From contig CALMMC010000124.1 of assembly GCA_937868205.1 (NCBI GenBank), positions 33,046-97,045 of the forward strand: a stretch of 64,000 nucleotides of DNA, read 5' to 3'. Numbering within the stretch: the stretch's first letter is position 1; every line of letters starts with the position of its first letter. Origin of the DNA: an uncultured bacterium. GTDB taxonomy: Bacteria; Acidobacteriota; Aminicenantia; Aminicenantales; UBA4085. Below the pieces are notes generated by a model. That model saw nothing but the letters and a program-made list of their open reading frames with translations. It was not told where the DNA came from and did no database searches. Of this stretch, positions 14,351 through 60,155 are shown one piece after another. The position numbers and the translations under genes are program-made.

Positions 14351-14515
14351 GCGTCCGGATCCGGCGCCGCCGGCCCTGTTTCATTTTAACGAAATCCGTC
14401 CGCATATCCAAAAAAAGGGCGGATCGATATTTCCGGTTTATTCTTCCCAGACTCCTCGGGCGTTCTCCCTCAAGGCGGAGAAGCTGCGCCACGGCCGCGA
14501 TTTTGGGAATTGATC

Positions 14516-36413: not shown

Positions 36414-38546
36414 GTGGATAATCCAAGCCATCGACGTCTTCTTCGCGGACTCGCGGTCATTTTATATTCCTTGCTGCTGGCTCTTTTCTATTGGAAGTAT
36501 GTGCCCCTTGTCGCCGCTTACCAGGCCGTTCTTATTCCCCTTCTCCTTTTCGTCGCCGTCGCCGCGGCGACCGACGTCCGAAAGGGCTTGCTGGGATTTC
36601 TTTTTCTATTTCCGCTGATCAACAATCTCCCGTATTTTTTCAAGCTCTACGATCCGCTTCCCATGGCCCCCTCGGCCTTGGTCCTGTTTCTCTTTTTCTT
36701 CCTGGGCCGGCTGATCCACGGGGTCTTCTTCCCTTTTCCGCCGGAAGAAAGCGGAAAAGGACCGAAGGAACCTCTCTTCACGCCGCTCCGCCTCTTTGCC
36801 GGCCTCGTCCTTTTCTCCGCCCTGATCACGTTTTGGCGCTACACGAATTTTTTCCCCCTCTGGCGGCCGCGGATTTATGAGCTTGTGACGAACGTCAAGG
36901 GCGTCAGCGCCGGCGGGGCGATCATGAGCGTCGTCTTCTACAGCCTGACGTACCTGACCGGCATCGTTTTTTTCACCCTTTGCGTCCGGGTTCTCCGGAC
37001 GGAGGGGTTCATTAAAAAAGCCGTCGCGGCGTTTGGGGTCGGATCATTTCTCTCGATCGGTTTCGGGTTTATTCAAAAATTTCATTCCCCCGCCCTCGGC
37101 AATCTTCCGGCCAGTCTCCGTCACGGCCTTCTCAACGCGACCTTCAAGGACGCCCTGTCCTTCGGGGCTTTTCTCTCAATGCTCATTCCCTTCTTGGCCG
37201 GACTCCTGCCCGCCGTCAAGGGAAGGACGAGGCTGACGGCGGCCGTCATGACGGCCGCGGCCGGCTATTTCTTGTTCCACGCCGGCTCCAAGAGCGCCCT
37301 CATCGCCGCCGCCGCCGCCCTTCTCTTCCTGGGAATCCTCATGCTTCCGGCGATTCTCGAGCGGCGCGGTCCGTTAGCCCGCCTGGTCATCCCTCTGGGG
37401 CTGGCGGCCGCCGTATTCGCCGGCGCCTCGATCTATCTCTTGATATCGGGAAATTTCCCCTCCGAGAACGGACAGCGCACGGCGACCATCGAACGCATGG
37501 AGGATTTCGCCTCAGCCCTCGAAATCCGCACCGCCGGCCACTGGAGGATCGCGGGCCAGATGATCCGGGATTATCCCCTAAGCGGCGTCGGGGTCGGGGC
37601 CTATATCATCGAAATGGCCAACACGGCGAAAACCCTCAAGATCTCGATCGGAGTTCCCGAATCGGCCGAAAACCTTCCTCTCCACGTCGGGTCCGAACTG
37701 GGGATTCCCGGCATGCTTCTATTCCTTTGGATCCTTTGGGAGATGGGAAGGCGGATTTTTCTCTCGTTCCGGGCGGCGCCTTCCGGGACGTTCCCCAGGG
37801 CCCTCATCGCCGCCTCGGCCGCCGGATTGTTCGCCTTCCTTGTGAATTCCCAGTCGCATTCCTACATCGGAAGCTATGAAATCCAGTACCTCTTCTGGTT
37901 TCTCGGCTCCCTGGCGTTCGCCGGGGACGTCCCTTCGCCCGCCGCCGCGGCAGGGCGGAAGCCGTCGAGCCGGCGCTTGGGACGCCTCTTCGGAACAATC
38001 CTCCTTTTTCTCGGCACGGCGGGGCTTCTTTGGAATTCAGCTCATTCGCTCTCGCTCAACGCCCGCACCGAGCGCTACCGGCTCCGGCAGGGATTCGGCC
38101 TCGGTCCCTATGAAAAGGACGCGGACGGACGGCGTTTCCGCTGGAGCGGACGATATGCGGGACTGACCGGCCGGGCCGGCGCTCCTCCGCTCAAGGCGTG
38201 GCTCCTCGCTTCTCATCCGGACATCCGCGTCCGGCCGGTCCGGCTGCGCCTCTTCGCCGCCGCCGACCTGGCCACGAAACCGGTCCTTCTCCAAGACCTC
38301 GTCCTTAAAGAAAACCTATGGAAAAGGATCGAGCTCCAGGCCCCCCCCGGCTTCCCGGAATCTTCCCTTTTTCTGTTCGAGGTGGATCGGACGTGGAATC
38401 CGCGTAAGGCGGGCGTATCGGACGATCCCCGGGACCTCGGCCTGGCGATCGGGATCATCCAGGCGGCCGGCCCGATCAAGCCGAAGGAAAAAACCGAGGC
38501 GGCCAAGCCCGCAAACAGTCCTCCGGAAAAGAAGGAAAACAGTTAG
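36414..38546 (+). CDS. Large Wzy_C/O-antigen-ligase superfamily membrane protein with about 200-aa C-terminal periplasmic domain (candidate polymerase or PglL-like O-oligosaccharyltransferase)
   Basis: About 12 TM helices, Wzy_C-like loop (FLFHAGSKSALIAAAAALLF); 710 aa is much larger than a typical WaaL; adjacent to a bacillosamine-like sugar pathway. Confidence 0.55.
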   Translation: MDNPSHRRLLRGLAVILYSLLLALFYWKYVPLVAAYQAVLIPLLLFVAVAAATDVRKGLLGFLFLFPLINNLPYFFKLYDPLPMAPSALVLFLFFFLGRLIHGVFFPFPPEESGKGPKEPLFTPLRLFAGLVLFSALITFWRYTNFFPLWRPRIYELVTNVKGVSAGGAIMSVVFYSLTYLTGIVFFTLCVRVLRTEGFIKKAVAAFGVGSFLSIGFGFIQKFHSPALGNLPASLRHGLLNATFKDALSFGAFLSMLIPFLAGLLPAVKGRTRLTAAVMTAAAGYFLFHAGSKSALIAAAAALLFLGILMLPAILERRGPLARLVIPLGLAAAVFAGASIYLLISGNFPSENGQRTATIERMEDFASALEIRTAGHWRIAGQMIRDYPLSGVGVGAYIIEMANTAKTLKISIGVPESAENLPLHVGSELGIPGMLLFLWILWEMGRRIFLSFRAAPSGTFPRALIAASAAGLFAFLVNSQSHSYIGSYEIQYLFWFLGSLAFAGDVPSPAAAAGRKPSSRRLGRLFGTILLFLGTAGLLWNSAHSLSLNARTERYRLRQGFGLGPYEKDADGRRFRWSGRYAGLTGRAGAPPLKAWLLASHPDIRVRPVRLRLFAAADLATKPVLLQDLVLKENLWKRIELQAPPGFPESSLFLFEVDRTWNPRKAGVSDDPRDLGLAIGIIQAAGPIKPKEKTEAAKPANSPPEKKENS

Positions 38547-41801: not shown

Positions 41802-42395
41802 TCAGAACTTGAGGACGGCCGCGATCGTTTTAAAGATCAGGCCGAGGTCGCGGCCGAAGCGGGGCGGGCCCTCGGCGTATCGCTCGTAGAGATCCAGCTT
41901 GCGGGGAAGGATCTCGTTTCGGTAGACGGCTTCCGGATCGGCCGCCGCCGCCAGCAGCTCCTCCTCGTTCCGGTAGATGATGGACGCCGGATCGGTGATC
42001 CCCGGCTTGACCCGGTGGACGACCGCCCACCGCCGCGGATAGGCCGCCACCCACTTCGACACCTCGGGCCGGGGACCGACCATCGACATGTCCCCCTTCA
42101 GCACGTTGAACAGCTGGGGCCACTCGTCGATTTTGGTCTTGCGAAGAAACCGGCCGAAGGATGTCACCCGGCGGGAATCGCCGGGCTCGAATCCGCCGCC
42201 CTCGCCTTCCGAGGCCGGGATCATCGTTCGAAACTTGAAAAGCGAAAACGGCCGCCCCGCCCTTCCGATCCGCGTTTGGCGGAAAAGGACCGGCCGGCCG
42301 TCGGCGAGAAAAATCAAGACGGCCACGAGCAGGAAAACCGGCGAAAGCAAAAGCAGCCCCAGCCCGGACGCCCCGAGGTCAAACGCTCTTTTCAT
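41802..42395 (-). CDS. Small phosphoglycosyl transferase (PglC/WbaP C-terminal 'bacterial sugar transferase' domain)
   Basis: Single N-terminal TM, FKFRTM, DEWPQLFNVLKGDMSMVGPRP signature. Confidence 0.8.
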   Translation of the reverse strand: MKRAFDLGASGLGLLLLSPVFLLVAVLIFLADGRPVLFRQTRIGRAGRPFSLFKFRTMIPASEGEGGGFEPGDSRRVTSFGRFLRKTKIDEWPQLFNVLKGDMSMVGPRPEVSKWVAAYPRRWAVVHRVKPGITDPASIIYRNEEELLAAAADPEAVYRNEILPRKLDLYERYAEGPPRFGRDLGLIFKTIAAVLKF

Positions 42396-43056
42396 CACTC
42401 GCCGCGGCCGACCGAAGACCGAGCTCCCCGGCAAAGGCCTCATCCAAATAGGCGACATAGAAGACCGTGTCCTCGGTTTCCAATTCCGGCGTTTCGATCC
42501 ATCGGCCCTTGATAAAAACCCTGCGGCTCGGCTGGTTGATCTTGTAACTTCCCGCCCGAATCGCCCGGCTTCTCCGTCTTCGGCTGTCGGTTTTCGTCTC
42601 CTCGACCAGAGCCGGGAAAATGCCCCGACCGCGGCAATTCTTGTCGACGACCCCGATCGTCATCTGGGCGAATCCGGGCTGGTCGGCGATTTTTCTGCCG
42701 GCGCTCGTCACATCCGGCCGGCGGAAAAGACGGCTCCAGAGCTTATGATTGAAAAGCAGCGCCGGCCTCCGGACCAGGCTGACGGCGAACGCGGGAAGGC
42801 AGGCCAGAAACATCGGCCGGGTGAACGGGCCGTCGCAGACGGCCACAATCCCGACGATTTTTCCTTCTCTCTCGGCGACCAGGGCATAGGACACCGCGCT
42901 CGTCACGAGCCAGCGGTACATCGCCCGGACATAATGCCGGCCGAGCATGGCCGGGACGTGCTCGCCGAATTTGAAGGAATCGCAATGGAGAGCCGTCATA
43001 TCCTCCAAGTCCCCCCGCCCGGCCAGCCGAATAACGGGATCGTCGGAATGAGTCAT
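42379..43056 (-). CDS. GNAT-family N-acetyltransferase (probable sugar N-acetyltransferase)
   Basis: GNAT motif A IGVVDKNCRGRGIFPALVE; ATGA overlap with the upstream GT4 gene. Confidence 0.6.
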   Translation of the reverse strand: MTHSDDPVIRLAGRGDLEDMTALHCDSFKFGEHVPAMLGRHYVRAMYRWLVTSAVSYALVAEREGKIVGIVAVCDGPFTRPMFLACLPAFAVSLVRRPALLFNHKLWSRLFRRPDVTSAGRKIADQPGFAQMTIGVVDKNCRGRGIFPALVEETKTDSRRRRSRAIRAGSYKINQPSRRVFIKGRWIETPELETEDTVFYVAYLDEAFAGELGLRSAAASDEKSV

Positions 43057-44318
43057 CGTCCCCCTTCCTTTCTCCGCGGCCGGACGGCCGCCTCTTCGAA
43101 TACCGCCGTCATCCGGCCGACGCCGATGGAAAACGCCAGCTCCTTCCGGTAGAACTCGGCGTTTCTTCTCCCCATCGTCTCCCGCTCATTCCAGGAAAGG
43201 GAGGCCAGCCCCAGGACCGCCTCGGCCAGGGCGGCCGGATCTTCGGGGCGGCATGTCCAGGCTCCTCCGGCCCGGGCCGCCAGCTCGGCCGCGCTTCCCC
43301 GGATCGCCAGGAGAACCGGTTTTCCCGCGGCCAAGGAGGCTTGGGTTTTCTGGGGAATCCCCATCCGGGCCAGGGGATCGTCCTTCAGATGCACGAGAAG
43401 CACGTCGGCCCGGGCCGTGATCCGGCCCAGGCTCTCCGGCGCCTGCCGGGGAATGAACAGGACGTTTTTCTGCCCGCGGCCGTCGGCCTTTTTCTTCAAG
43501 GCCGATTCCTCCACTCCGTCTCCGACAAAAACGAAGCGGATGTCCGGACGTTTTTCCTCGATCAAGAAAGCGGCGTCTAAGACGCCGCCCAAGGCCTGGA
43601 GCGCTCCGAAATTGCCGGAATAAACGACATTGAACCGGCCGGCGAGCCCGAACGGATCGGATCCCTCCCCGTCCGTTTCCCCCGGAAGCGACCGTTCGTC
43701 GCACCAATTATAGACGACCTCGATTTTCTTCTCGGGAACGCCCCGGGCCTCCAAGCATTTTTTGTATCCGTTCGAAAGAACGATGATTTTCCGGGCCAGC
43801 CGGTAGGTCGCCTTGCTCCAAGCCCCCAAAACGGCTGAAACGCCGGGAAGAGAAAGCATTCCAGTCACGGTCACGCTTTCCGGCCACATGTCCTGGACGT
43901 CGAGGACGTACGGCGTCCCGAACATCATCCGGAACACCATCGCCGGCCAGGCCAGCGTGGCCGGCCCCTGGTAGACATGAACGACGTCGGGGCGGGCGAC
44001 CAACGGCGGCCCCAGCAGGGCGGCCGTGCCGGCCAAACTCAGATATCCTGCCGTCCGCCGGACGGCCGAACGGTCGTGGCTCGGATACATCATGACGCGG
44101 GTGACGGGGACGCCGTCGAGGATTTCCCGCATCCACGGCCGGATCCGGTAGCCGGGATAGACTTTCCCGGCGGGATAATGGGGGAATCCCGTCAACACTT
44201 CGACGTCATGGCCGCGGCGGACCAACTCCCGGGCAAAGGCCAAACCCTTCAAATGGTTCGGCTCCGGCTGGAACAGCGGCGTCAGGAGAAGAACGCGCAT
44301 CAATCGGCCGCGCGCCAC
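43053..44318 (-). CDS. Glycosyltransferase family 4
   Basis: GT-B fold, E-x7-E-like region in the C-terminal half. Confidence 0.75.
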   Translation of the reverse strand: MARGRLMRVLLLTPLFQPEPNHLKGLAFARELVRRGHDVEVLTGFPHYPAGKVYPGYRIRPWMREILDGVPVTRVMMYPSHDRSAVRRTAGYLSLAGTAALLGPPLVARPDVVHVYQGPATLAWPAMVFRMMFGTPYVLDVQDMWPESVTVTGMLSLPGVSAVLGAWSKATYRLARKIIVLSNGYKKCLEARGVPEKKIEVVYNWCDERSLPGETDGEGSDPFGLAGRFNVVYSGNFGALQALGGVLDAAFLIEEKRPDIRFVFVGDGVEESALKKKADGRGQKNVLFIPRQAPESLGRITARADVLLVHLKDDPLARMGIPQKTQASLAAGKPVLLAIRGSAAELAARAGGAWTCRPEDPAALAEAVLGLASLSWNERETMGRRNAEFYRKELAFSIGVGRMTAVFEEAAVRPRRKEGGR

Positions 44319-45433
44319 ACCGTCCGGTTCACATAGTCCGTGTAGCTCAGGACGATCCGGAGGACTTTTTCGGACACGTTGGGAACGTCATAATCCGCGA
44401 CGATCCGCGGTCCCCGGCACTCGCCGCGCGGCTGGGTGGCCAGGACGGCCAAGCCGCGGCGGACGTTTTCGTAATCCAAGCCGGTCATCATCACCGCTCC
44501 TTCCTCCATCCCCTCGGGGCGCTCATGGGCTTCCCGGATGTTGAGGGCCGGGAAGTTGAGGATGGAGGATTCCTCGGTGATCGTCCCGCTGTCGGAAAGG
44601 ACGGCGCAGGCCTCGAGCTCGAGCTTCACGTAATCCGTGAATCCGAACGGCTTTTCCAGCATTATCCCAGGGGCCAAGGCCGGTTTCCGGGCCTCGATGA
44701 TTTTTCGGGTCCGGGGGTGGGTGGTCACGACGACTTTCTTTTTTCCGTCTCCGGCCAGGCCGTTGAGGATTTTCATCAGCCCATCGAACGGCTTGGACGA
44801 ATCGACGTTTTCCTCCCGGTGGGCGCTGACTACGTAATACTCGCCGGGCCGGAGCTTCAGCCGCTCGAGAACGCCGGATTTCTTAATCTTGGGAAGGTAA
44901 TGATGCAGGACTTCGAACATCGGGCTGCCCGTCTTGATGACCCGGTCCGGCGGAAGCCCCTCGCGGAGGAGGTACTCTCGGGAAATCGCGCTGTAGGGAA
45001 GGTTGACGTCGGCGAGGTGGTCGACGATCCGCCGGTTGATCTCCTCGGGGACGCGCTGGTCGAAGCACCGGTTGCCCGCTTCCATGTGGAAAATCGGGAT
45101 TTTCCGCCGCTTGGCCGGATAAGCGGCCAGGCAGCTGTTCGTGTCTCCCAGGACAAGCAGCGCGTCCGGGCGGTCGCGGTCCAGGACGGCGTCCATCCGC
45201 TCGATGATCCGCCCGATCGTTTCGCAGGGGGTCGCCCCGGCCGCTTCCAGGAAGCGGTTCGGCTTGCGGATCTCGAGGTCCTCGAAAAAGACCTGGTTCA
45301 GCTCATAGTCGTAATTCTGGCCGGTATGGACGAGGACATGCTCGCATTCCCGGTCCAAGGCCGGAATCACCCGGGACAGGCGGATGATCTCGGGGCGCGT
45401 TCCGACGACGGTCATCACCTTAAGCTTTTTCAT
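44300..45433 (-). CDS. fnlC: UDP-N-acetylglucosamine/UDP-2-acetamido-2,6-dideoxy-hexose 2-epimerase (WecB/FnlC/CapG family, non-hydrolysing)
   Basis: MKKLKVMTVVGTRPEIIRLS...HTGQNYDYELNQVF is the WecB family N-terminus; context with the fnlA/fnlB homologues. Confidence 0.8.
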   Translation of the reverse strand: MKKLKVMTVVGTRPEIIRLSRVIPALDRECEHVLVHTGQNYDYELNQVFFEDLEIRKPNRFLEAAGATPCETIGRIIERMDAVLDRDRPDALLVLGDTNSCLAAYPAKRRKIPIFHMEAGNRCFDQRVPEEINRRIVDHLADVNLPYSAISREYLLREGLPPDRVIKTGSPMFEVLHHYLPKIKKSGVLERLKLRPGEYYVVSAHREENVDSSKPFDGLMKILNGLAGDGKKKVVVTTHPRTRKIIEARKPALAPGIMLEKPFGFTDYVKLELEACAVLSDSGTITEESSILNFPALNIREAHERPEGMEEGAVMMTGLDYENVRRGLAVLATQPRGECRGPRIVADYDVPNVSEKVLRIVLSYTDYVNRTVWRAAD

Positions 45434-46550
45434 TTCTCACCTTTGCCGCGAACGTGTCGGGCCGGGCCGGGTCGAAGATCTCGCTGGCCCAGAAAAGAAC
45501 GATCATCTCCGCGGTCCCGACATTCTCGATGGAATGGGTCCAGCCGGGCGGGATGTCCACGACCCGCATCTCCCGTCCGCAGACGGGATATTCGATGATC
45601 TCGCCCGTCGTCAGGCGACGGAAGCGGATGACCGCCTCTCCTTCGAGAACAACGAACTTTTCAACCTTGGAGTCGTGATAATGATTTCCCCGGGTGACTC
45701 CCGGACGGGTCCGGGAAACGAAGATCTGGCCGTGGCCGCCGAGCTTGAGCAGCTCGGCCAGCGCCCCCCGTTCGTCTTCCCGGACCGCCAGGTCGTAGTC
45801 AAACTCCTCTTCGGGAAGGTAAGAGACGTACGTCCCGAAGAGCCGGCGGTCGAAAGGATCGTCCAAGGCCGGCTGGGCCAGGGTTTCCCGGACGGCCCGG
45901 AACGCCTGGATCTTCCCGGCCAACGCCCCCAAAGAGACGCGGAAGACCGGCGTCACGGAAAGAAAGGACGCGCCGCCGGGGCCGGGGCCGGCCTTGAGAG
46001 CGGCCAGAAAGGCGGCGACGACGTCGTCCACATGGACAAGATCGATTTCCCGGTCCGGATCGGATATCGAAATCGGCAGATCCCGGGCGATATTGTGGCA
46101 GAACGTGGCCACGACGGAGTTATAATTCGGCCGGCACCATTTGCCGAAGACGCCGGGCAGGCGGAAAATCCGGACGGCCGCCCCGGTTCGGCGGTGGAAA
46201 TCGAGGAGAGCGTCTTCAGCCCGTTTCTTGGAGCGGCCGTAGGGATTGTCCAAGAGGGCCTGGATCGAGGAGGAAAGGACGACCAGCGGACGGCGGCCGC
46301 GGCGCTCGAGGCCCGCAAGGACCGCCGCCAGGGAGCCGACGTTTCCGTCCTCAAATTCGTTTTCCTTTTCCGGCCGGTTGACTCCGGCCAAGTGAATGAC
46401 GGCTTCCGCTTCGTCAAGGCCGCGCTCCAGGACCGCGGCCGCCGTCCCGAGATCGACGCCGATGATTTCGGTCCCGGCTTCGCGGCCCAAGGCCAGCCGG
46501 AGATTCTTTCCGATGAATCCCTCGGCCCCGGTGACGAGTACCCGGTTCAT
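45420..46550 (-). CDS. fnlB: Bifunctional SDR reductase plus C-terminal cupin (CapF/FnlB/WbjC-like)
   Basis: N-terminal VLVTGAEGFIGKNL Rossmann domain without a classical YxxxK, plus a C-terminal cupin (HYHDSKVEKFVVLEGEA), the CapF architecture. Confidence 0.75.
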   Translation of the reverse strand: MNRVLVTGAEGFIGKNLRLALGREAGTEIIGVDLGTAAAVLERGLDEAEAVIHLAGVNRPEKENEFEDGNVGSLAAVLAGLERRGRRPLVVLSSSIQALLDNPYGRSKKRAEDALLDFHRRTGAAVRIFRLPGVFGKWCRPNYNSVVATFCHNIARDLPISISDPDREIDLVHVDDVVAAFLAALKAGPGPGGASFLSVTPVFRVSLGALAGKIQAFRAVRETLAQPALDDPFDRRLFGTYVSYLPEEEFDYDLAVREDERGALAELLKLGGHGQIFVSRTRPGVTRGNHYHDSKVEKFVVLEGEAVIRFRRLTTGEIIEYPVCGREMRVVDIPPGWTHSIENVGTAEMIVLFWASEIFDPARPDTFAAKVRNEKA

Positions 46551-47566
46551 TTCGATTCCGTCCCAAGCTCGTCCCGAACCAGGGCGAGCTTCATCAAGAG
46601 ATCGGCCATTTCGCCGGTGTCGAGACGCCGGGTGTTGTGGGAGTTATAGTCGTTTTCCTTCGAAACGCGCTCCTGCCCCTCGGTGAAATAAAGATTGTAA
46701 TCCAGTCCTCGGTTGTCGGCCGGGATGCGGTAGTAATCCCCGAGGTCCTCGGCCCGGGCCAGCTCCTCCCGGGTCAGCAGCGTTTCGTAAAGCTTTTCGC
46801 CGTGGCGGGTGCCGATACTCTGAAGGGGATTCCGGGCCTTGAAGATCTCCAGCAGCGCCCGGGCCAGCGTCTCGATGGTCGCCGCCGGCGCTTTCTGGAC
46901 GAAGATGTCCCCCGGCCGGGCATTTTTGAAGGCATAGAGAACGAGATCGACGGCGTCGTCGATCGTCATCATGAACCGGGTCATCTTTGGATCGGTGATC
47001 GTCAGCGGCTTCCCCTGCTTGATCTGCTCGATGAAAAGCGGGATGACCGATCCGCGCGAGGCCATGACGTTGCCGTACCGTGTCCCGCAGAAAACGGTCT
47101 TTTCGTTCCCGCCCAGGCGGGCCTTGGCGACCATGAGCTTTTCCATCAGGGCCTTGGACAACCCCATGGCGTTGATCGGGTAGACGGACTTGTCGGTCGA
47201 GAGGACGATGACGCTCGAGGCCCCGGCTTCGGCCGCGGTGTTCATGACATTTTCCGCGCCCAAGGCATTGGTCCGGATCGCCTCCATGGGATAAAACTCG
47301 CAGGACGGAACCTGCTTGAGGGCGGCCGCGTGAAAGACGAGATCGACGCCGGCCATGGCCGGCGCGAGGCTGTCGGCCTGGCGGACATCGCCGATGATAA
47401 ACTTGAGCTTGGGGCTCTTGTAGGCCAGCCGCATGTCCTCCTGTTTCTTCTCGTCCCGGGAGAAAACGCGGATCTCCCGGATGTCGGTCTTGAGGAAGCG
47501 GCCGAGGACGGCATTGCCGAACGTCCCCGTTCCGCCGGTGATAAGGAGAACCTTGTTTTTAAACAT
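46547..47566 (-). CDS. fnlA: UDP-N-acetylglucosamine 4,6-dehydratase/5-epimerase (inverting; FnlA/CapE/WbjB family)
   Basis: MFKNKVLLITGGTGTFGNAVL...IRVFSRDEKKQEDMR...FIIGDVRQ closely matches the CapE/FnlA N-terminal consensus. Confidence 0.85.
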   Translation of the reverse strand: MFKNKVLLITGGTGTFGNAVLGRFLKTDIREIRVFSRDEKKQEDMRLAYKSPKLKFIIGDVRQADSLAPAMAGVDLVFHAAALKQVPSCEFYPMEAIRTNALGAENVMNTAAEAGASSVIVLSTDKSVYPINAMGLSKALMEKLMVAKARLGGNEKTVFCGTRYGNVMASRGSVIPLFIEQIKQGKPLTITDPKMTRFMMTIDDAVDLVLYAFKNARPGDIFVQKAPAATIETLARALLEIFKARNPLQSIGTRHGEKLYETLLTREELARAEDLGDYYRIPADNRGLDYNLYFTEGQERVSKENDYNSHNTRRLDTGEMADLLMKLALVRDELGTESK

Positions 47567-47641: not shown

Positions 47642-48592
47642 TCAAGGCGTTCGGCGGCGATCCGCGCGGGCGGAAAGAACCTCGCGCAGCTTGAGCAGGA
47701 CGTAAGGAGCGGCGTAAAGGCCGCGCGAAAGGATCTCGACGGCCCGCTTCGGAAGCCGGCCCCGCTGCTCGAGGCGCTTGACGGCCGCGTCGGCCCGATG
47801 GCACATCCGGTAGCCCAACCTCGTCGCGCCATCGATTCTTTCCGCCTCCGGACGCGCCCGGTCCCGGATGAACTCCTCCCAAATCTGGGCCTTGGCTTGG
47901 AGTTGGACGCGGGCCCGCCGGGCCGCGTTCCCCCCCCGGATCCGGACCCGGGTCAGGACTTCGGGAACCGCCGCCAGCGGATATCGGGCCGCCAGGTTGA
48001 TCCAGAAAAGACTGTCTTGGCCGTAGCGCATTTTTTCCGAAAAGCGCAGATTCGGGCTTTCTCTCAGGATCTCGGCCCGGATCATGACGCAGGGCGTGGC
48101 GATGGGGGCCGATCGAAGGCATCGGAGAAAGACATCCCCGCGGCAGGCCGAGACATCGACCGTTTTCTCGGCCCGGCGAGGATTTCCGCCGCGGAAAAGC
48201 GTATAACCGGTATGCGACCACGCCGCGCCCGTCGCCGTCATGAGGCCGAGTTGTTTCTCGATTTTCCGTTCCTCCCAGACATCATCCGAATCGAGGAACG
48301 CGATGAACTCCCCGGCGGAGTTCTCGATTCCGAGATTTCTCGCTGAGCCGGGACCGCCGTTGTCCTTGTGGAAATAGCGGATTTTTCCGGCGAAGCGGCC
48401 AAGGACGCCTCCCACATCCTCCGGCGAGCCGTCATTGACGAGGATGATCTCCGTGTTTTCATATGTCTGGCGGACGGCGCTTCCGACCGCTTCCTCCAGC
48501 CAGCCCGCCCCGGCGTAAAAAGGGATGATGACGCTGACTTTAGGCGTCAACCGCCCGTGAATCTGATCGAATCCCTTAAAAAGTCCAAGCAT
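47642..48592 (-). CDS. Glycosyltransferase family 2
   Basis: VSVIIPFYAG...VNDGSPED...LDSDD (DxD) GT-A motifs. Confidence 0.8.
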   Translation of the reverse strand: MLGLFKGFDQIHGRLTPKVSVIIPFYAGAGWLEEAVGSAVRQTYENTEIILVNDGSPEDVGGVLGRFAGKIRYFHKDNGGPGSARNLGIENSAGEFIAFLDSDDVWEERKIEKQLGLMTATGAAWSHTGYTLFRGGNPRRAEKTVDVSACRGDVFLRCLRSAPIATPCVMIRAEILRESPNLRFSEKMRYGQDSLFWINLAARYPLAAVPEVLTRVRIRGGNAARRARVQLQAKAQIWEEFIRDRARPEAERIDGATRLGYRMCHRADAAVKRLEQRGRLPKRAVEILSRGLYAAPYVLLKLREVLSARADRRRTP

Positions 48593-48659: not shown

Positions 48660-49524
48660 TCAGCGCTTCTTCGCCAAAACGATATTAATCATCCCGGAAT
48701 TGGGAACAATCGACGAGGCCACACGATAAAGAGGATTCATCACATGTCGAAGAATCGACGCGCCTTTCGGCAGAGAGATATGCGTATCCGCAGAGCGTGT
48801 CATTAAAACATTAAATCCATAGTGATGGACAATATCGATTGTCTCGGCCATCGTGTACTCCCGCACATGACCGAAACCGTGGACCCAGATTCCGTCCCCA
48901 TGTGAAGACGCCGACTTTTCCTCTTTGTACACTCGATACACCGGATCGAGCACCGCCTTCCCCATAATCGCTTTGATGCGTTTGCTGAGCATCGCGATAT
49001 TTTGGAAGAGAAAAGACCAGAATCCCTCCCGCTCTAAGAATTTTTTTTATTTCCGAAAACACTTTTCCCGGGCCTGTATTCAAATGTTCAAAAACCTCCG
49101 TAAAAACGACCATGTCCATCTGACCGGGAGAAAACGGGATTTCATCTTTTAAAAGGTCACACACGCAATGCTCTATTCGATTTTTATGACATCGATCCGC
49201 TAGGAGCGAAGTGAGATCAATCGTGAACATCCGTACATTTGGAAAACACTTTCGATAAACAAACGTCATCGGCGAAGTACCAATATCAAGAATCGCCGAT
49301 TCCTTCCCTTTGGGCAATATCCTCAGGCCTTTTTGGATCATGAGGACATTCTGCCGGACAGATTCCTTATGGTTTATGAAATATTGTTTTTCGACGTTTC
49401 GGCTTTGTCCCAAACAGTTGTCGTCCGAAGAAAGGGATATTTCCATAATCACTTTTTCAAAAGAGGCCTTGAAATCCGGATCATCTTCGCGTGAATGCCG
49501 CCATTTAATACTACGGCGCGTCAC
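48660..49524 (-). pseudogene. Class I SAM-dependent methyltransferase interrupted by a single-base frameshift (extra A in a run at 49000-49003)
   Basis: N-part (ILDIGTSPM motif I ... FSEIKKILRAGGILVFSLP) in one frame; the protein-like continuation NIAMLSKRIK...WVHGFGHVREYTMAETIDIVHHYGFNVL lies in the +1 frame (ORF 48660..48992); the original-frame continuation is G/R-rich nonsense. Low-GC region. Confidence 0.6.
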
Positions 49525-49526
49525 GT

Positions 49527-50654
49527 TTATTTCATTCCTTTTTCTTCAAGGATTCTCACTAATTGTTTTGCGTGCCGTTCCTTTTTATCGCATAAATAAG
49601 CGATGATCGTCTTTGTTCCTTTTTCCGCGATGCTGGATTTATTATCGTAGTCCTGCAAAACACTCCGGATCGTTTTTGCAATATGCTCGGGATTTTTTCG
49701 CAAGATCCGGTAGCAATTATACCCATCTTTCATCAAATACGGGATCGTTCCGACGAACGTCGTGAGGATCGGAGTTCCGGCGATCATGGCTTCATACAGG
49801 ACCCGCGGAAAGCCCTCATGGTGCGTCGGGAGAACGAAGAGGTCGGCTTGCCGGTACATTCTTTTCAAGAAATCCCGATCGGAGACAACCCCGTGAAGGC
49901 GGATCCATCCGCCAAGGTCCTCCTCCGCGATGATTTGTTTGATCTTCGCCGCATCCGCTCCGTCGCCGACCATGTCGAGGCTGAAGTCGACTTCCCCCCT
50001 GTCCTTCAGGATTTTCACCGCTTGGACGAGATCATAGGAGCCTTTCGGCTCTTCGACGCGGCCTACATAGAGGAGGCGATAATGATCCCGTCGCTCATAC
50101 GTGCGGCCGGAAACGATATCCTTCTCCCCCTCTTCCATCATCGGACGTATTGTTTGCGCCTCGCCTCCTCCTTTCCTGATGATTTCAGTGAATTGAGGCG
50201 AGATTGTCAAAGAAATCATCGCTTTCCGAAATAATATTTTTGAGAGGCGAGACCGCATCCCTTTTTCCCCCCGGATATAAAAACCAAATGGTTTTCTCCA
50301 TAGGACGGCAAAGATGGCCATAAAGAGATTGATATTTCCGGGATAATATAGATAGAGAAAATCATATTTTCGGACGATTTTAAATCCAACAATCAACCCT
50401 TGGATATAGGCGGCGTATTTTATTTTCCCCCTCGATATCGATATGATTTTAATATCGCGGTCATTGATTTTGTAATCAAAGATACTGTTTTTTTCCTGGT
50501 TTTTAATACGAAATTGGAAAAATCCTACCTGTTCAACAAGATGGGACAATTCAACAAGGAATCGGCCGTCACTTCGAAAGATAAACAAATCGTTGCCTTT
50601 TTCAAGCATGACATTATTTCTAACAAGAAGGATTTTCATTTTTTTCCATGCCAT
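49527..50654 (-). CDS. Glycosyltransferase family 4 (low-GC, horizontally acquired)
   Basis: EGFPRVLYEAMIAGTPI (E-x7-E motif); about 45% GC against about 66% background. Confidence 0.8.
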   Translation of the reverse strand: MAWKKMKILLVRNNVMLEKGNDLFIFRSDGRFLVELSHLVEQVGFFQFRIKNQEKNSIFDYKINDRDIKIISISRGKIKYAAYIQGLIVGFKIVRKYDFLYLYYPGNINLFMAIFAVLWRKPFGFYIRGEKGMRSRLSKILFRKAMISLTISPQFTEIIRKGGGEAQTIRPMMEEGEKDIVSGRTYERRDHYRLLYVGRVEEPKGSYDLVQAVKILKDRGEVDFSLDMVGDGADAAKIKQIIAEEDLGGWIRLHGVVSDRDFLKRMYRQADLFVLPTHHEGFPRVLYEAMIAGTPILTTFVGTIPYLMKDGYNCYRILRKNPEHIAKTIRSVLQDYDNKSSIAEKGTKTIIAYLCDKKERHAKQLVRILEEKGMK

Positions 50655-52118: not shown

Positions 52119-52823
52119 TTATCTCGCGTATTCAAAATGAACGAAATCCGGCTCGTAATATTTTTGAACCGCGTTCTTCATTTCCCCGGTATACCGTTTT
52201 TCCTTCGCCGCCGGGCGGAACGACAGGCGAAAGACGATTCCGGGGTGTTTTTTGATGATTCTCCAGCCCCGAACAGCATGAGTTCCCGGGCTCAAACCGC
52301 TCGAATCGTTGAGATTTTGAAGCCGCGCGCCGCCGAGGTTCAACCGCCGGGCGACTTGGGCGAAATCCTCGTTGATCGTCTCCAGCTTCCCGACGTAATC
52401 AACGAGCCGAGTCCCCGATTCATCATACACATAGGACGACATGGGCTTGATGAAGTAATGGAGACTCGGATCGCCGAACAGACGAGGAAGCTCGTCTAGA
52501 ATGAACGTTTCAAACGAGACTAGACGGGCGTATCCCAGGTACTTGTAAAAAGAATAAACCCGGTCATAGGGATTCCGGACGAACGCGAATTTAAAGTAGG
52601 CGTCGAACGTTTCTTGGTTGACATATCCATATTCCACATATTCCCGGGCCGTCAGGTGGGACAGGATCCCGGGCCCCCGATCTCCCCGGTTGACGATCCC
52701 CAGAAGAAGCGATTCCCGGCGGGCGAAGTCCAGGCCGAGCGCATCGAGAAAAACCTGCTCAATGCTGATGCCCGCCACTTTCGGGATGTGAACAAAAATG
52801 CATTTGTATTCATGAGACAACAT
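52119..52823 (-). CDS. Sulfotransferase (Sulfotransfer_2 / carbohydrate sulfotransferase-like)
   Basis: N-terminal PAPS 5'-phosphate-binding region (IFVHIPKVAGIS) and FVRNPYDRVYS 3'-phosphate-binding motif. Confidence 0.7.
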   Translation of the reverse strand: MLSHEYKCIFVHIPKVAGISIEQVFLDALGLDFARRESLLLGIVNRGDRGPGILSHLTAREYVEYGYVNQETFDAYFKFAFVRNPYDRVYSFYKYLGYARLVSFETFILDELPRLFGDPSLHYFIKPMSSYVYDESGTRLVDYVGKLETINEDFAQVARRLNLGGARLQNLNDSSGLSPGTHAVRGWRIIKKHPGIVFRLSFRPAAKEKRYTGEMKNAVQKYYEPDFVHFEYAR

Positions 52824-55663: not shown

Positions 55664-56149
55664 TCAACGCTGGCGGATATCCTCGGCCTCATAGGCCAGG
55701 ACATACGCATCGTAACCGTCGATGGGGACACGGCCGACTTTCTGCCAATCGCCCTCCGGCAGGAATGTCGTTCGGGCGTAGCATTTCTTCAAATCCGCCG
55801 CTCCCCTCGATTCATCCGCGGAAGCGAAATGAAAGGTGAAGCTGTGATACAGCTTCGGATGCGCGGCGATGATTTGATCCAAGGCGAGCCTCGAGATTTC
55901 CAGAAGCTTGTCCCTCAACGGCCGCCCCTCGACCTGGATCCAGTAGAACCGGTTGACCGGCGAGACCCCGACCGATTCCGTCTTCAGAACCCTAATCTTC
56001 ACGCCCGTCGCCTCCGAAACCGCGGTTTCGTTGATTTCCGCAATCACCGCCGCGGCCGGTGGCGCGGGGGCGTCTTGGGCTTTCCGGCAAGACGGGATAA
56101 GCAGGCTGCCGATCAGGACGCTGCAGGCAAGCAACCCTTCCCTTTTCAT
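55664..56149 (-). CDS. Hypothetical lipoprotein
   Basis: Signal peptide with a lipobox-like LIPSC; no recognisable domain. Confidence 0.45.
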   Translation of the reverse strand: MKREGLLACSVLIGSLLIPSCRKAQDAPAPPAAAVIAEINETAVSEATGVKIRVLKTESVGVSPVNRFYWIQVEGRPLRDKLLEISRLALDQIIAAHPKLYHSFTFHFASADESRGAADLKKCYARTTFLPEGDWQKVGRVPIDGYDAYVLAYEAEDIRQR

Positions 56150-56256: not shown

Positions 56257-57669
56257 TCAGGCCGTCGGAGAGCCGACGGCGATGATTTTAAACCCCGCTT
56301 TGCGCAAGGGGCCGTAAGCGCTCTGGAGCATCCGCCGTCCGTCCATGAGGAGCGGCCGTTTTTTATGCTTTTTCAGAAGCTCGTCCAAACCGCGGAATTG
56401 GGGCCAGTCGGTGGCGATGATCACCGCGTCCGCCCCGGCCACGGCCTCCGCCTCCGAGGAGGCATAAACGAGGGCGGGCGAGGGAGGGAACAGCCGCCGA
56501 AAATTGTCCATGGCCGCCGGGTCGAAAATCCGTGTTTCCCGGACTTTTTTCCCGGCGAGGAACGGGACGATATCGAGGGCCGGGGAATTGCGGATGTCGT
56601 TCGTATTCCGCTTGAAGGCGACGCCGAGAAGGGCGACTTTCTTGCGCGTCCAGTCGAAGCGGGCCTCGGTTTCGGCCCGGTTGAGGAATCCCAGGAGCTG
56701 GCGGCGGTTAGCCCCGAAAATCTCCTGGACAAGGGAGGCGTCTTTCTTCCGGGCTTGAAGCTGGTAACGGAGCGAGCGGGCGTCCTTGATGAAGCAGCTC
56801 CCCCCGGCGTACAGGCTGTCGTAAAGGCCCCAAGCGCCGATCCGGGGATCGCTCGAGAGGATTCTCCGGACGTTTTCGAAATGAATGCCGGGGAACGATT
56901 CGCACGTCCGGCCGATCACGTCGAAACAAACGGCCAAGCGGCTGAAAAGAGTGAAATTGGCCAGCAGCTTGCCGGCCGCCGCCTCCCGGGGGTTGACCTC
57001 GATGTACCGGACCGTCGGGGCGTTCAGAAACCGCTGGTAAATGCGGCGCAGGACGGCGAAATCCTTTTCCTTCTCGGCCCCGATCACGATCCGGTCCGGC
57101 CGGAGCGCCCCCATGACGGCCTGGCCCTCGACGAGGAATTCGGGGTTGGATACAACCCCGGTGTTACGGACCCCGGCCTCCCGGAGGATCTTCCGGGTTC
57201 GGCTGACCGTGTCGATCGGGACGGTGCTCTTGTTGACGATGACGATATACTTTTCCTGGGCGCCTTTGTTCCGGCGACGGAGGGCGGCCGCGATTTTCCG
57301 GGCGGCCTCCAGGTAGTACGTGAGATCGCTCTCGCCCGTTTCATTGATTTCCGGCGTCGGAAGGCACATGAAAACGGCGTCGCAGCGGTCCAGGAATTTC
57401 TCGACCTTGGAGTAATCGGACGTGAATTCAATCCGGTCCCGGTTCCGGACGAGCAGATCGCCGAGGCCTTCCTCATAAATGCACGATTCGATCTGATCGC
57501 GGTCTCCGGAGCGGAGCTTGGCGATTTTTTTCGCGTCCACGTCATAAGCCAGGGTGGAGTGGCCGCTGTCGGCCGAGACGGCGGCCGAACAGGCCCCGAC
57601 GAAACCCGTCCCCAGATACAAGACGTTCATCCCGGACACGGAATCCTCAATCCTCGTTTTCTGCGACAT
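56257..57669 (-). CDS. Nucleotide-sugar dehydrogenase (UDP-glucose/GDP-mannose dehydrogenase family; possibly UDP-GlcNAc/ManNAc dehydrogenase)
   Basis: NVLYLGTGFVGACSA N-terminal NAD fold, catalytic Cys region (GGSCFIKD); start ambiguous between 57669 (GGAG Shine-Dalgarno) and 57630. Confidence 0.8.
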   Translation of the reverse strand: MSQKTRIEDSVSGMNVLYLGTGFVGACSAAVSADSGHSTLAYDVDAKKIAKLRSGDRDQIESCIYEEGLGDLLVRNRDRIEFTSDYSKVEKFLDRCDAVFMCLPTPEINETGESDLTYYLEAARKIAAALRRRNKGAQEKYIVIVNKSTVPIDTVSRTRKILREAGVRNTGVVSNPEFLVEGQAVMGALRPDRIVIGAEKEKDFAVLRRIYQRFLNAPTVRYIEVNPREAAAGKLLANFTLFSRLAVCFDVIGRTCESFPGIHFENVRRILSSDPRIGAWGLYDSLYAGGSCFIKDARSLRYQLQARKKDASLVQEIFGANRRQLLGFLNRAETEARFDWTRKKVALLGVAFKRNTNDIRNSPALDIVPFLAGKKVRETRIFDPAAMDNFRRLFPPSPALVYASSEAEAVAGADAVIIATDWPQFRGLDELLKKHKKRPLLMDGRRMLQSAYGPLRKAGFKIIAVGSPTA

Positions 57670-57880
57670 ACCGGGCTCCAATAGGAATCGTTTTCTCTCC
57701 ATCGACTTCGGATACAGGCTACCGCCGATGGGCTTGGGAGACCTCATGGACGGACATCGATTCAACGACGGAGGAAGGACGCCGGGCGACGACGGAAAGC
57801 CGGCCGGATATCCCCTCGCCTGATCACAAAAACATCATAGGAAAAATAACGCGAAAAAACAATTGACTTCATTTGATTTT

Positions 57881-60112
57881 TCACCGCCCCCTGCGTCCGA
57901 GGATATCCTCGGACGGCCCGATGTTGCCCAGCCCCAGGGAGAACAGAAATTGGATGTCCGGCGTTTCCCGAAAGAAAAACGCCCGGAGGCCCATCTGGAT
58001 GTCGATGCATTGGACATGCCAGACGGCGGCCAGGCCCGCGTAGAGCACCTTTTTCGCCTGGAGGTTGTATTCAAACTCGCCGAGCGTCTCCAGGCGGAGG
58101 GTGGAGAACTCCGCCCCTCCCCGAAGCCCGATCTGATGGCGGCTGATGCTCGTGTAGCCGCGATAGGGATTGATGCTTTTGTACCAGGAAACGGCCAGGT
58201 AAGCGCCGTCGGAGGCGTTTCCAAGACCGGCTGAAGCCCGAACGCTGGACAGGAATCTTTTATAAGTGTTGTATCCCAGGCTGAGGTCCAGGTTGACGCC
58301 GGAGACCGGGAAGAAGCGGAGCTTGTTGAGGATTTCCGAGAACCGCGGGATACTCCCGTCCTCGAGCCGGTACCGGCTCAAGGGGCTGTTTGCGGCGTCC
58401 ACATAGTAAGTCTGCTCCAGCTGCCAGGTCAGCAACTCGCGGGCCCTCTCCTCGCCCCGCTTGACCAGGATCTGGTTCTGCACCCCGTAGTTGACATAGT
58501 GGTATCGGAAGAAAAAGCCGCTCGTCGTGATGATCCGGTCGGAGTCGATGGCCGGCGTGTCGTACCGGTACGTGATCGTCGGCTCGATGACGTGTTTCAA
58601 CCGGGTCGAAGACTTCCGGATGTCGAAAATCCGGTACAAGACCGGGCCGGTCATCGTCGCCGAGAAGGATCCGTTTCCGCTTAGGAGCCCCCGGTTGAGG
58701 GTTTCATGGCTCTCCGGATCGCGGCTGTTTCCGTAATAATCGAGGTTGCCGGCGACGGAGAAATCAAAACCGAGCCAAGCGATCTCGGTGAAGGGCAGGG
58801 TGATCCTCGGCGAAAGGGACAGGACGCTCGATTTCACCTGGGTGCCCGCCTTGAACTGGTTGGTGAATCCATACTGCCAGTTGTCGTAGCCGGCGCTCAA
58901 GGAAAAATAGCTCGGCCCCCAGAGCTTTTTCTTGAACAGGCTGAAGCTGATTTGCGGAAGGGATTGGCGGATCCGGGCGAACGTCCAGGCGGGGTAGGTC
59001 GTCTCGAACCGGCTGAGGCGGACGCTCAAATTCGATCCGGTCCAGCTTTTCGTCACGTAGACCTGGGAGCTCCGGTTGTAAACCAGGGCCCGGGTGAAGT
59101 CGTTGTCGAACTCCCGGGTGAAGGAGAAGGAGTTCTGGTAGTCGACGTTGGCGACGATGTTGAGCTTTCCGGGAAGAGGCTGGTTGTGGCTCCAGCGAAA
59201 GATGACGGCATCTTCCGGCTTGACGCCCGTCGACGGAGTCCGGTAGCCGAAATAGAAGGCGTTGAGGCGGCCGCCCCATCCGCCCTCGAACAGGTAGCGG
59301 AATTCGAGGCCCCCGCCGGCGCCCTTGGCCGCGTAATAATCCAGGGAAAAGGTGGCGTCCATATTCCGGGCCATGGCCCAATAGAACTGCTGGGTCAGGT
59401 TCAAGCCTTTCTGTTTCGAATAACCGATCCGGGGGAAGAGAAAGCCCGTGGCCCGGTCCCGGTCAAGGGGATATTTGAGGTAGGGAAGATAGAAGATCGG
59501 AACGTCCTTGATCTTGAAGACCGGATCCCACATCTTAATGTATTCGTTCCGCACGAATTCGGCCCGGGAGGCGGAGAACTTCCAGCGGGGGACGGGCTGG
59601 GAGCAGCCGGTGATCGTGCTTTTCCCCACCCGGAACAGGTCGGGGCTTTCGCGCTCGACCCGGTCGGACTCGTACCGATATTCGGGTTGAACGAGCCCGA
59701 CGACGTTTTCGGCCCGGCCCAGGCCGGTTTCCATGTTCAAGGCGAACCGGTCGGCCGAGAACGTCTCGTCGGGCCGGATCAGGGTGACGTGGCCGACGGC
59801 CAGGGCGTCCTTGGTCGTCTCGTCATAGACGACCTGGTCGGCGCAGAGAATGATCTCGCCATAACGGATCTCCACGTTTCCGGAGGCGGTGATTTTGTTT
59901 TCGAGCCGTTCCTTGTAGTCCGCCTTGATGACGAGCTTGCCGACGGCGGTTTCGGCCGGGGACGGCGCGGCCGCCTGGGGCGGAACGGCCTGAGACCCGG
60001 TCTGCGGCCGGGACTGGGCCGAAGTCTCGGCCGCGGACCCGACCAGGGCGGCAAGGAAAATCACAATTCCGGCCAGGGCGGAAACAGTAAAAATGCTCCG
60101 CCGGCCCGCCAT
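57881..60112 (-). CDS. lptD: LPS-assembly outer-membrane protein LptD (OstA N-domain plus large beta-barrel)
   Basis: Signal peptide, OstA-like N-domain (GNVEIRYGEIILCADQVVYDETTKDALAVGHVTL), about 550-aa beta-barrel; start chosen at the ATG with an AGGAAGGA Shine-Dalgarno. Confidence 0.8.
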   Translation of the reverse strand: MAGRRSIFTVSALAGIVIFLAALVGSAAETSAQSRPQTGSQAVPPQAAAPSPAETAVGKLVIKADYKERLENKITASGNVEIRYGEIILCADQVVYDETTKDALAVGHVTLIRPDETFSADRFALNMETGLGRAENVVGLVQPEYRYESDRVERESPDLFRVGKSTITGCSQPVPRWKFSASRAEFVRNEYIKMWDPVFKIKDVPIFYLPYLKYPLDRDRATGFLFPRIGYSKQKGLNLTQQFYWAMARNMDATFSLDYYAAKGAGGGLEFRYLFEGGWGGRLNAFYFGYRTPSTGVKPEDAVIFRWSHNQPLPGKLNIVANVDYQNSFSFTREFDNDFTRALVYNRSSQVYVTKSWTGSNLSVRLSRFETTYPAWTFARIRQSLPQISFSLFKKKLWGPSYFSLSAGYDNWQYGFTNQFKAGTQVKSSVLSLSPRITLPFTEIAWLGFDFSVAGNLDYYGNSRDPESHETLNRGLLSGNGSFSATMTGPVLYRIFDIRKSSTRLKHVIEPTITYRYDTPAIDSDRIITTSGFFFRYHYVNYGVQNQILVKRGEERARELLTWQLEQTYYVDAANSPLSRYRLEDGSIPRFSEILNKLRFFPVSGVNLDLSLGYNTYKRFLSSVRASAGLGNASDGAYLAVSWYKSINPYRGYTSISRHQIGLRGGAEFSTLRLETLGEFEYNLQAKKVLYAGLAAVWHVQCIDIQMGLRAFFFRETPDIQFLFSLGLGNIGPSEDILGRRGR

Positions 60113-60155
60113 TATTTTCCTTCCTGGCAATTGCATAGGACCGCCCAAGCCTTAT

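Follow-up and report, generated by a model that had tools for sequence, protein, structure and literature searches.

Introduction

Sulfotransferases encoded within Wzx/Wzy-dependent polysaccharide loci have already been described in several bacteria. The xss cluster of Synechocystis sp. PCC 6803, responsible for the polysaccharide synechan, encodes the sulfotransferases XssA and XssE together with a Wzx flippase (XssH), a Wzy polymerase (XssF) and a polysaccharide co-polymerase (PCP; XssK), and sulfation of the product has been confirmed chemically (PMC8205485). In the O-antigen operon of Vibrio sp. KMM 8419 a sulfotransferase gene (ORF_404) lies beside the Wzx gene (ORF_402), and the authors read potential O-antigen sulfation from the gene content (PMC11641403). 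The wps-1 locus of Actinoplanes missouriensis combines two sulfotransferases (WpsB and WpsH) and a methyltransferase (WpsF) with Wzx, Wzy, and Wzz; a sulfated polysaccharide is predicted and its chemical verification is awaited (PMC13390465). Mesorhizobium loti KpsS, a fucosyl sulfotransferase, and rhizobial NodH are bacterial enzymes that depend on 3'-phosphoadenosine 5'-phosphosulfate (PAPS) and act on glycolipid or oligosaccharide acceptors (PMC11625862), and further sulfated bacterial polymers come from Cobetia and Pontiella. Here we analyze a sulfotransferase gene at positions 52119–52823 of a 64,000-nucleotide stretch of DNA, hereafter the window, from an uncultured member of the Candidatus Aminicenantes (Acidobacteriota; assembly GCA_937868205.1, contig CALMMC010000124.1). 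We think it likely that its product is a carbohydrate O-sulfotransferase, soluble, cytoplasmic and PAPS-dependent, which modifies the repeat unit of a surface polysaccharide made by the Wzx/Wzy route, most probably the O-antigen of lipopolysaccharide (LPS). A sulfotransferase in such a locus is an already described kind of arrangement, and not a new kind of system.

The locus resembles the synechan cluster in that a sulfotransferase gene sits next to wzy inside a Wzx/Wzy cluster (xssE, sll5046, neighbors xssF, sll5047, by locus-tag order), and for synechan, too, modification has been proposed to take place on the cytoplasmic, lipid-linked repeat unit (PMC8205485). The enzymes differ in family, XssA and XssE being ST3 (Sulfotransfer_3) proteins (PMC8205485, Supplementary file 2) and the window protein a member of PF03567. 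They differ also in setting: synechan is a released exopolysaccharide (EPS) made with a PCP-2a and an outer membrane polysaccharide export (OPX) protein, whereas the window locus is O-antigen-like, with a PCP-1 Wzz and ligase-like genes, and sulfation was demonstrated chemically there and is predicted here. The Vibrio operon is alike in having a sulfotransferase in a Wzx-dependent O-antigen operon, a likeness of gene content; unlike the window, this marine gammaproteobacterium carries a second cysNDC copy in its wider polysaccharide region. Like the window locus, wps-1 joins a sulfotransferase and an S-adenosylmethionine (SAM)-dependent methyltransferase to Wzx, Wzy, and Wzz, but it belongs to the EPS of a Gram-positive actinomycete, its two sulfotransferases are of other InterPro families, and its knock-outs have a phenotype. 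The description of KpsS as a fucosyl sulfotransferase finds a parallel in the pathway for an N-acetyl-L-fucosamine (L-FucNAc)-type sugar encoded in the window locus, whereas NodH belongs to PF13469 and the rhizobial enzymes are tied to symbiosis. Rhizobial sulfotransferases are, in addition, linked to nodPQ genes for PAPS synthesis. The animal heparan sulfate 2-O- and 6-O-sulfotransferases (PDB 3F5F and 5T03) share about 15–17% identity with the window protein; they are Golgi type II membrane proteins, longer than 300 aa, whose substrates are finished polymers, whereas the window protein, at 234 aa, is soluble and expected to act on a lipid-linked oligosaccharide.

A PF03567 sulfotransferase with conserved cofactor motifs

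A preliminary description of the window, made from its letters without database searches, had placed a carbohydrate sulfotransferase with two PAPS-binding peptides at 52119–52823. The open reading frame (ORF) is exact: it lies on the minus strand, begins with ATG, encodes 234 aa, and carries the two peptides at residues 9–20 (IFVHIPKVAGIS) and 81–91 (FVRNPYDRVYS). The family assignment that the description had put forward for checking is borne out by a match to Pfam PF03567 (Sulfotransfer_2; E=1.5e-12, 48.6 bits, gathering cutoff 22), which forms one stretch over residues 3–233 and profile positions 6–252 of 252. Judged by its profile score and coverage, the match is far beyond chance. All of the 120 homologues listed carry PF03567, and NCBIfam models gave no match to the protein. 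GenBank entries 100% identical to it, from Acidobacteriota or Candidatus Aminicenantes metagenome-assembled genomes, are named 'sulfotransferase family 2 domain-containing protein'; the gene is real, and its family-level annotation is already in GenBank.

Hallmarks of PF03567 are a strand-loop-helix 5'-phosphosulfate-binding (PSB) loop with a conserved lysine, a strand-turn-helix 3'-phosphate-binding (PB) motif of the form PxxRxxS, and a beta-sheet PAPS fold (PMC11625862). The window protein has the PSB loop, the PB motif and an alpha/beta fold around the PAPS site. In its structure model the PSB region comprises a strand (residues 8–10), a loop (12–20) and a helix (18–28), and the PB region a strand (77–82) and a helix (85–95). 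Eighteen positions are invariant in an alignment of 40 homologues of 37–85% identity: H12, P14, K15, G18, S20, L31, L39, P51, H56, R83, P85, R88, S91, G145, E148, N172, D226, and Y232. The PAPS-binding residues named in advance as a point at which the assignment could fail, those of the PSB and PB motifs, are among them. His56 lies between the two motifs, where the catalytic histidines of heparan sulfate 2-O-sulfotransferase lie as well, and is a plausible candidate for the catalytic base. Alignment of the family at large is poor in the region that holds the base (PMC11625862). The 22 best structural matches of the model are all sulfotransferases, and a profile of the family searched against PDB sequences returned nothing at E<=1.

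The protein has no hydrophobic segment (maximum 19-residue Kyte-Doolittle score 1.44) and no leader, the first, PSB strand beginning at residue 8; it is therefore expected to be soluble and cytoplasmic. PAPS is a cytoplasmic metabolite, and because the presumed donor and the enzyme would share this compartment, sulfation probably precedes flipping. The gene is embedded in its operon. A GGAGG lies 13 nt 5' of its ATG, 27 nt separate it from the flippase gene, and its TAA stop abuts the ATG of wzy (TAAATG). The claim that it sits between wzy and wzx holds, with a PF14296 Wzy gene downstream and a flippase gene upstream, the latter being recognizable as wzx by the fold of its product only.

Purifying selection and the edge of the variable block

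The gene shows zero nucleotide differences among the five assemblies of the population. Measured against its 66%-identical orthologue in a related serotype locus (L009, 9001–9705), dN/dS is 0.22 overall, 0.15 over codons 1–100, and 0.21–0.28 over codons 101–234. The sulfotransferase gene is under purifying selection and is not decaying.

Divergence from L009 changes along the locus. Nucleotide identity is 0.9–0.99 through the flippase gene, falls from 0.87 to 0.6 across the sulfotransferase gene and reaches noise level in wzy, and synonymous divergence is 0.24 in the flippase gene, 0.64 in the 5' part of the sulfotransferase gene, and 1.8 in its 3' part. Read from these two profiles, the gene straddles the boundary of a serotype-variable block, and a recombination boundary runs through the gene itself, so that the serotype-specific block seems to take in its C-terminal half. 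For many members of the wider family, too, the alignment is confined to residues 1 to ~175. The conserved cofactor-binding half, taken together with a C-terminal half that has diverged and is still constrained, suggests that the C-terminal ~130 residues (codons 101–234) determine acceptor specificity and vary together with the repeat unit. GC content across 48–53 kb is 0.46–0.56, against ~0.63 elsewhere in the window; O-antigen loci usually have low GC in their variable part.

Homologues lie in polysaccharide loci

Four sibling assemblies, 99.6–99.9% identical, contain the same locus. Locus L009 has the same flanks and keeps the block of Ugd, a 161-aa protein, Wzz, flippase, and sulfotransferase; it differs from the window in a Wzy_C-type polymerase, other glycosyltransferases (GTs) and an acetyltransferase. 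Locus L010, whose sulfotransferase is 57% identical, encodes Bac_transf, Wzy_C, Wzz, the sulfotransferase, a PF01943 Wzx, a PF14296 Wzy, GT4, an acetyltransferase, GT2, and FnlA. In L009 the sulfotransferase gene likewise stands between the flippase and polymerase genes, and L010 has a similar arrangement. More distant homologues keep comparable company. The L005 homologue (47%) is surrounded by genes for adenosine 5'-phosphosulfate (APS) kinase, CysD, CysN, and a Sulfotransfer_1/3 protein, in a locus that also encodes a Polysacc_synt flippase, two pyruvyl transferases, GT4s, and an EpsG polymerase. Three Flavobacteria-type homologues (L007, L008, and L011; ~42%) lie among a Sulfotransfer_1/3 gene, a Polysacc_synt flippase gene, GT genes, and Wzy_C genes, with rmlABCD nearby, and in Marinoscillum pacificum (L012) two tandem PF03567 genes and a PF00685 gene stand among GT genes downstream of a PCP-2a gene. 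In all four of these last loci, extra PF00685 or PF03567 sulfotransferases adjoin Polysacc_synt flippases or GTs.

Homologues are found in repeat-unit polysaccharide loci in 7/7 independent contexts sampled, and the family is large, with 7,685 clusters at 50% identity at E<=1e-3, 1,088 at <=1e-10, and 132 at <=1e-30. The preliminary description had called sulfated bacterial surface polysaccharides rare, with Sinorhizobium and marine bacteria as the known examples. That view is dated, given the sulfotransferases of Wzx/Wzy or O-antigen loci in Synechocystis, Vibrio, and Actinoplanes and the 1,088 clusters at E<=1e-10. Its forecast of a sulfated surface polysaccharide, on the other hand, gains support from family, cofactor residues, fold, selection, operon position, and the context of homologues in other phyla, and is still a prediction. 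FnlA-type genes accompany the sulfotransferase gene in the window, L009, and L010; since they are missing from the more distant contexts, L-FucNAc as the acceptor is only a guess.

The polysaccharide locus

From position 57765 down to 38596 all genes are on the minus strand and tightly packed (Table 1), and by gene content the locus looks complete for a Wzy-dependent polysaccharide: a priming transferase, two GT4 and one GT2 glycosyltransferases, Wzy, Wzz, and a Wzx identified by fold only. Synthesis would begin with the PglC-like phosphoglycosyl transferase, which would prime undecaprenyl phosphate with a 4-amino-4,6-dideoxy-N-acetylhexosamine (HexNAc)-type sugar. Three glycosyltransferases would extend it, one of the added sugars probably being of the L-FucNAc type, from the FnlA/B/C-like trio. 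The sulfotransferase, and the methyltransferase where it is intact, would then decorate the undecaprenyl-diphosphate-linked oligosaccharide on the cytoplasmic face, with Lys15, Ser20, Arg83, and Ser91 predicted to hold PAPS and His56 proposed as the base. The flippase, of the multidrug/oligosaccharidyl-lipid/polysaccharide (MOP) superfamily, would carry the sulfated unit across the membrane, whereupon Wzy would polymerize it, Wzz would set the chain length, and a WaaL-like ligase would join the polymer to lipid A-core. Counting one priming transferase and three GTs, the repeat unit would have about four sugars. It probably includes the 4-amino-4,6-dideoxy-HexNAc-type first sugar and an L-FucNAc-type sugar, and perhaps a uronic acid, given the nucleotide-sugar dehydrogenase encoded first in the operon; with an intact methyltransferase it may also bear an O-methyl group.

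Table 1. Features of the window discussed in the text, with coordinates, strand and the matches on which each assignment is based.
Feature	Coordinates	Strand	Evidence
LptD	57881-60148		adjoins locus
Nucleotide-sugar dehydrogenase (Ugd-like), first of block	56257..57765	-	TIGR03026 267 bits (cutoff 189.8), three UDPG_MGDP_dh domains
Conserved 161-aa protein	55664..56149	-	no family match
Wzz chain-length determinant, PCP-1-like, 370 aa	54501..55613	-	PF02706 30.5 bits (cutoff 25.5), weak GNVR match
MOP-superfamily flippase (Wzx-like), 520 aa	52851..54413	-	fold match (Foldseek)
Sulfotransferase, 234 aa, soluble	52119..52823	-	PF03567
PSB loop, residues 12-20, HIPKVAGIS	52764..52790	-	H12, P14, K15, G18, S20 invariant
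Candidate catalytic base His56	52656..52658	-	invariant in the 40-homologue alignment, between PSB and PB motifs
PB motif, residues 83-91, RNPYDRVYS (PxxRxxS)	52551..52577	-	R83, P85, R88, S91 invariant
Wzy repeat-unit polymerase, 485 aa	50661..52118	-	PF14296 O-ag_pol_Wzy 36.4 bits (cutoff 26.6)
GT4 glycosyltransferase	49527..50654	-	PF00534 107 bits; in low-GC (0.46-0.47) variable segment
SAM-dependent methyltransferase, split by +1 frameshift	48660..49524	-	PF08241 and related families
GT2 glycosyltransferase	47642..48592	-	PF00535 98.6 bits
UDP-2-acetamido-2,6-dideoxy-L-hexose (L-FucNAc-type) trio: FnlA-like, WbcJ/FnlB-like reductase, WecB/FnlC-like 2-epimerase	44300..47566	-	NCBIfam and Pfam
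GT4 glycosyltransferase (WcaI-family-like)	43053..44318	-	PF13579, PF00534; NF007640 135.7 bits, below cutoff
GNAT-like acetyltransferase	42379-43056	-	PF00583 (weak)
Small Bac_transf phosphoglycosyl priming transferase	41802-42458	-	PF02397 175.9 bits
DegT aminotransferase	40587-41783	-	PF01041 372.9 bits
PglF/WbpM-like 4,6-dehydratase	38596-40527	-	PF02719 352 bits
710-aa Wzy_C-domain protein (O-antigen ligase-like), divergent	36414..38546	+	PF04932 55.2 bits (cutoff 31.7)
Second Wzy_C-domain protein, 477 aa	26588-28021	+	77.6 bits; adjoins GT9 heptosyltransferase

Several of the genes call for further detail. Wzz has two hydrophobic segments (residues 27–48 and 334–356) and no kinase domain, and Wzy has at least nine hydrophobic segments and scores 24 against TIGR04370, below its cutoff of 40. 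In the FnlA-like trio the NCBIfam scores are 525 bits for TIGR04130 (FnlA; below the cutoff of 730), 413 for NF047837 (below 500), and 212 for TIGR00236 (above 210). In every assembly, and also in the related serotype locus L009, the 161-aa protein is encoded between Ugd and Wzz; its N-terminus, LLACSVLIGSLLIPSC, resembles a lipoprotein signal. The region at 24–36 kb holds, besides the second Wzy_C protein and the GT9 heptosyltransferase, rmlA and several epimerases or dehydratases.

The methyltransferase gene is divided into two ORFs in the window by an extra A in a short A-run near 49003 (CCAAAATATC vs CCAAATATC), and is intact, at 287 aa, in the four sibling assemblies. The frameshift may stem from an error in assembly or sequencing, or it may be a genuine variant that switches O-methylation on or off. 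One sibling assembly (L001, JGI 3300030394, 10706–12162) has wzy split into 405 and 79 aa, whereas the window and three other assemblies have the full 485-aa gene; within the population this is a second case of a single gene disrupted in the variable part of the locus.

Which polymer, which acceptor, and whether PAPS is made

The destination of the polymer is the part of this reading with the strongest competitor. A genuine sulfotransferase could serve the same Wzy-dependent polymer as a capsule or EPS, or as a protein-linked O-glycan transferred by a PglL-type enzyme, and not as LPS O-antigen. Wzy_C domains are common to WaaL ligases, polymerases, and PglL-type O-oligosaccharyltransferases, and neither Wzy_C protein of the window matched an NCBIfam equivalog, which leaves room for a PglL-type role. 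The 710-aa Wzy_C protein, moreover, adjoins a bacillosamine-type priming module (PglF/PglE/PglC-like), an arrangement that resembles Neisseria-type pgl loci. For EPS there is the validated precedent of synechan. The signature of group 1-like capsule or EPS loci, an OPX protein together with a PCP-2a carrying a tyrosine kinase, is absent from the ORFs of the window: among the ~55 scanned, there is neither an OPX/Wza (Poly_export) protein nor a PCP-2a kinase-domain protein, and the topology of Wzz is that of PCP-1. The absence of OPX from the window is not decisive, the synechan OPX gene being itself unlinked. LptD, a GT9 heptosyltransferase and a second ligase-like gene, all in the same 35-kb region, also speak against capsule or EPS. 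The two-transmembrane Wzz without a kinase, the two Wzy_C proteins, the heptosyltransferase, the adjacent LptD, and the lack of OPX in ~55 ORFs together favor O-antigen over capsule, and O-antigen is most probably the product; we regard the capsule, EPS, and O-glycan options as unlikely, though they are the most serious of the alternatives.

It is less probable again that the enzyme acts on lipid A-core, a glycolipid, a nucleotide sugar or a small metabolite, its place in the locus being incidental or the result of horizontal insertion. Bacterial glycolipid sulfotransferases do include NodH, Stf0, and KpsS (PMC11625862), and the gene lies in a low-GC segment at the edge of a serotype-variable block. 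Such GC values are, on the other side, usual in variable O-antigen segments, and an incidental position fits poorly with a stop codon that abuts wzy, with a gap of 27 nt to the flippase gene, with an order kept in L009 and similar in L010, and with family contexts that are all repeat-unit polysaccharide loci.

Several points weigh against the proposed sulfation of an O-antigen repeat unit. The organism is uncultured, and sulfation is a prediction from genes. We found no literature on biochemically characterized members of the ~230-aa bacterial PF03567 subfamily. A look for PAPS-synthesis genes, which the preliminary description had named as a check, covered ~74 kb, the scanned ORFs of the window together with a further 10 kb to the right of it, and found none for ATP sulfurylase (sat), CysDN, APS kinase (cysC) or CysQ. 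Co-located PAPS genes (cysN/cysD/cysC) with a sulfotransferase have been called a hallmark of sulfated-polysaccharide clusters (PMC11641403), and here the sulfotransferase stands without linked PAPS genes. The genes sat, cysC, and cysH have been reported in a different Aminicenantes genome (PMC4897734); coming from another genome, they are only suggestive for this one.

These points raise the prospect that the gene is intact in an organism that makes no PAPS, for example one that assimilates sulfate by an APS-reductase-type route without APS kinase, and that the polysaccharide is unsulfated. Dedicated cysDNC copies do accompany the sulfotransferases in L005, Vibrio, and Cobetia. The hallmark arrangement is present in L005, yet linked PAPS genes are absent from most sampled homologue loci (L007–L012), and the synechan cluster as published names none (PMC8205485). 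Purifying selection on both halves of the gene and its full conservation in five assemblies indicate an enzyme in use, and the sat and cysC genes of the other Aminicenantes genome point the same way; we consider an organism lacking PAPS improbable, slightly more so than a different acceptor. That the protein is a P-loop kinase-like protein matching PF03567 by chance is highly improbable, with a Pfam score more than twice the cutoff over the full profile, motifs of the form PKxxGxS and RxPxxRxxS in place of a Walker A GxxxxGK[ST], and none but sulfotransferases among the 22 best structural matches.

The flippase and other genes of the window

The flippase matched nothing in Pfam or NCBIfam even at E=10, and hhalign of its profile against one canonical PF01943 Wzx gave a probability of 1%. 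Its AlphaFold2 model (pLDDT 88.1) matched MATE, MurJ, and the lipid III flippase WzxE in a Foldseek search of the PDB (E down to 2e-7, probability 1.00, TM 0.57–0.75), and many of its homologues are named 'O-antigen/teichoic acid export membrane protein' by JGI, with a few carrying PF01943. Judged from the modeled fold, the protein is a divergent MOP flippase. It is 50–60% identical across records labelled Planctomycetes, Phycisphaerae, Kiritimatiellia, Desulfomonilia, and Nitrococcus, a conservation across phyla that, by these sequence comparisons, is unusually high for a Wzx. Homologues from three other phyla (L014–L016) lie in Wzy_C/GT4 polysaccharide loci; in L014 and L015 the flippase gene is followed by genes for an APH-like kinase and a methyltransferase. 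We considered a dedicated flippase-sulfotransferase module, the pair being kept in L009, and rejected it, as these three flippase homologues are in polysaccharide loci without a sulfotransferase.

The preliminary description also pointed to a membrane 'sulfatase-like enzyme' at 913–2961, unrelated in position and of the opposing enzyme class. The likeness holds: in the protein (minus strand) five N-terminal hydrophobic segments precede a PF00884 domain. The opposing class does not, since T-V-P-A-H (in W-T-V-P-A-H-A-S-L-F-T-G) replaces the formylglycine motif C/S-x-P-x-R of sulfatases. In NCBIfam it matches sulfatase models best, though none comes near its cutoff (best 123.6 vs 481), and its gene adjoins genes for a pstSCAB-like phosphate transporter and a phosphate-selective porin (3005–7542). 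By its motif, the product counts as a sulfatase-fold membrane protein of non-canonical type, with nothing to connect it to the sulfotransferase; a hydrolase or transferase of phosphoryl or sulfuryl groups, with a Thr nucleophile and a tie to phosphate metabolism, is its probable nature. An LtaS/EptA-type transferase is unsupported, as the top-ranked NCBIfam models are those of sulfatases and the matches include no LtaS-type model.

At 13466–17982 (minus strand) genes for a XerC/D-like tyrosine recombinase, topoisomerase I, and DprA lie together, in what looks like a housekeeping cluster and not a mobile element. Nothing indicates that an island carries the polysaccharide locus.

Discussion

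We found no literature that links Aminicenantes or Acidobacteria to sulfotransferases or sulfated polysaccharides, and the present prediction is the first of its kind for the Aminicenantes candidate phylum. The names of the Aminicenantes bins suggest methanogenic digesters, 'ADurb' probably standing for anaerobic digester. Sulfated glycoconjugates have been detected chemically in anaerobic sludge's extracellular polymeric substances and were left unassigned by genome mining (PMC10483923), and a link between them and this sulfotransferase family is possible. In its boldest form the proposal would be that an abundant Aminicenantes lineage displays a sulfated, O-methylated O-antigen (the first predicted sulfated LPS in Acidobacteriota), that the ~230-aa soluble PF03567 family is a main source of the unassigned sulfated glycoconjugates of sludge, and that the C-terminal ~130 residues set acceptor specificity; taken as a whole this is speculative, and we would sooner doubt than accept it.

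Our understanding of how such systems work is unchanged by the finding. A small, soluble bacterial carbohydrate sulfotransferase could serve the production of sulfated glycans in engineered hosts. If the polymer is indeed sulfated, sulfated surface polysaccharides would extend to a candidate phylum without cultured members. Because the family is large and its sampled contexts are without exception polysaccharide loci, the genetic potential for sulfated bacterial glycans looks far wider than the few solved structures.

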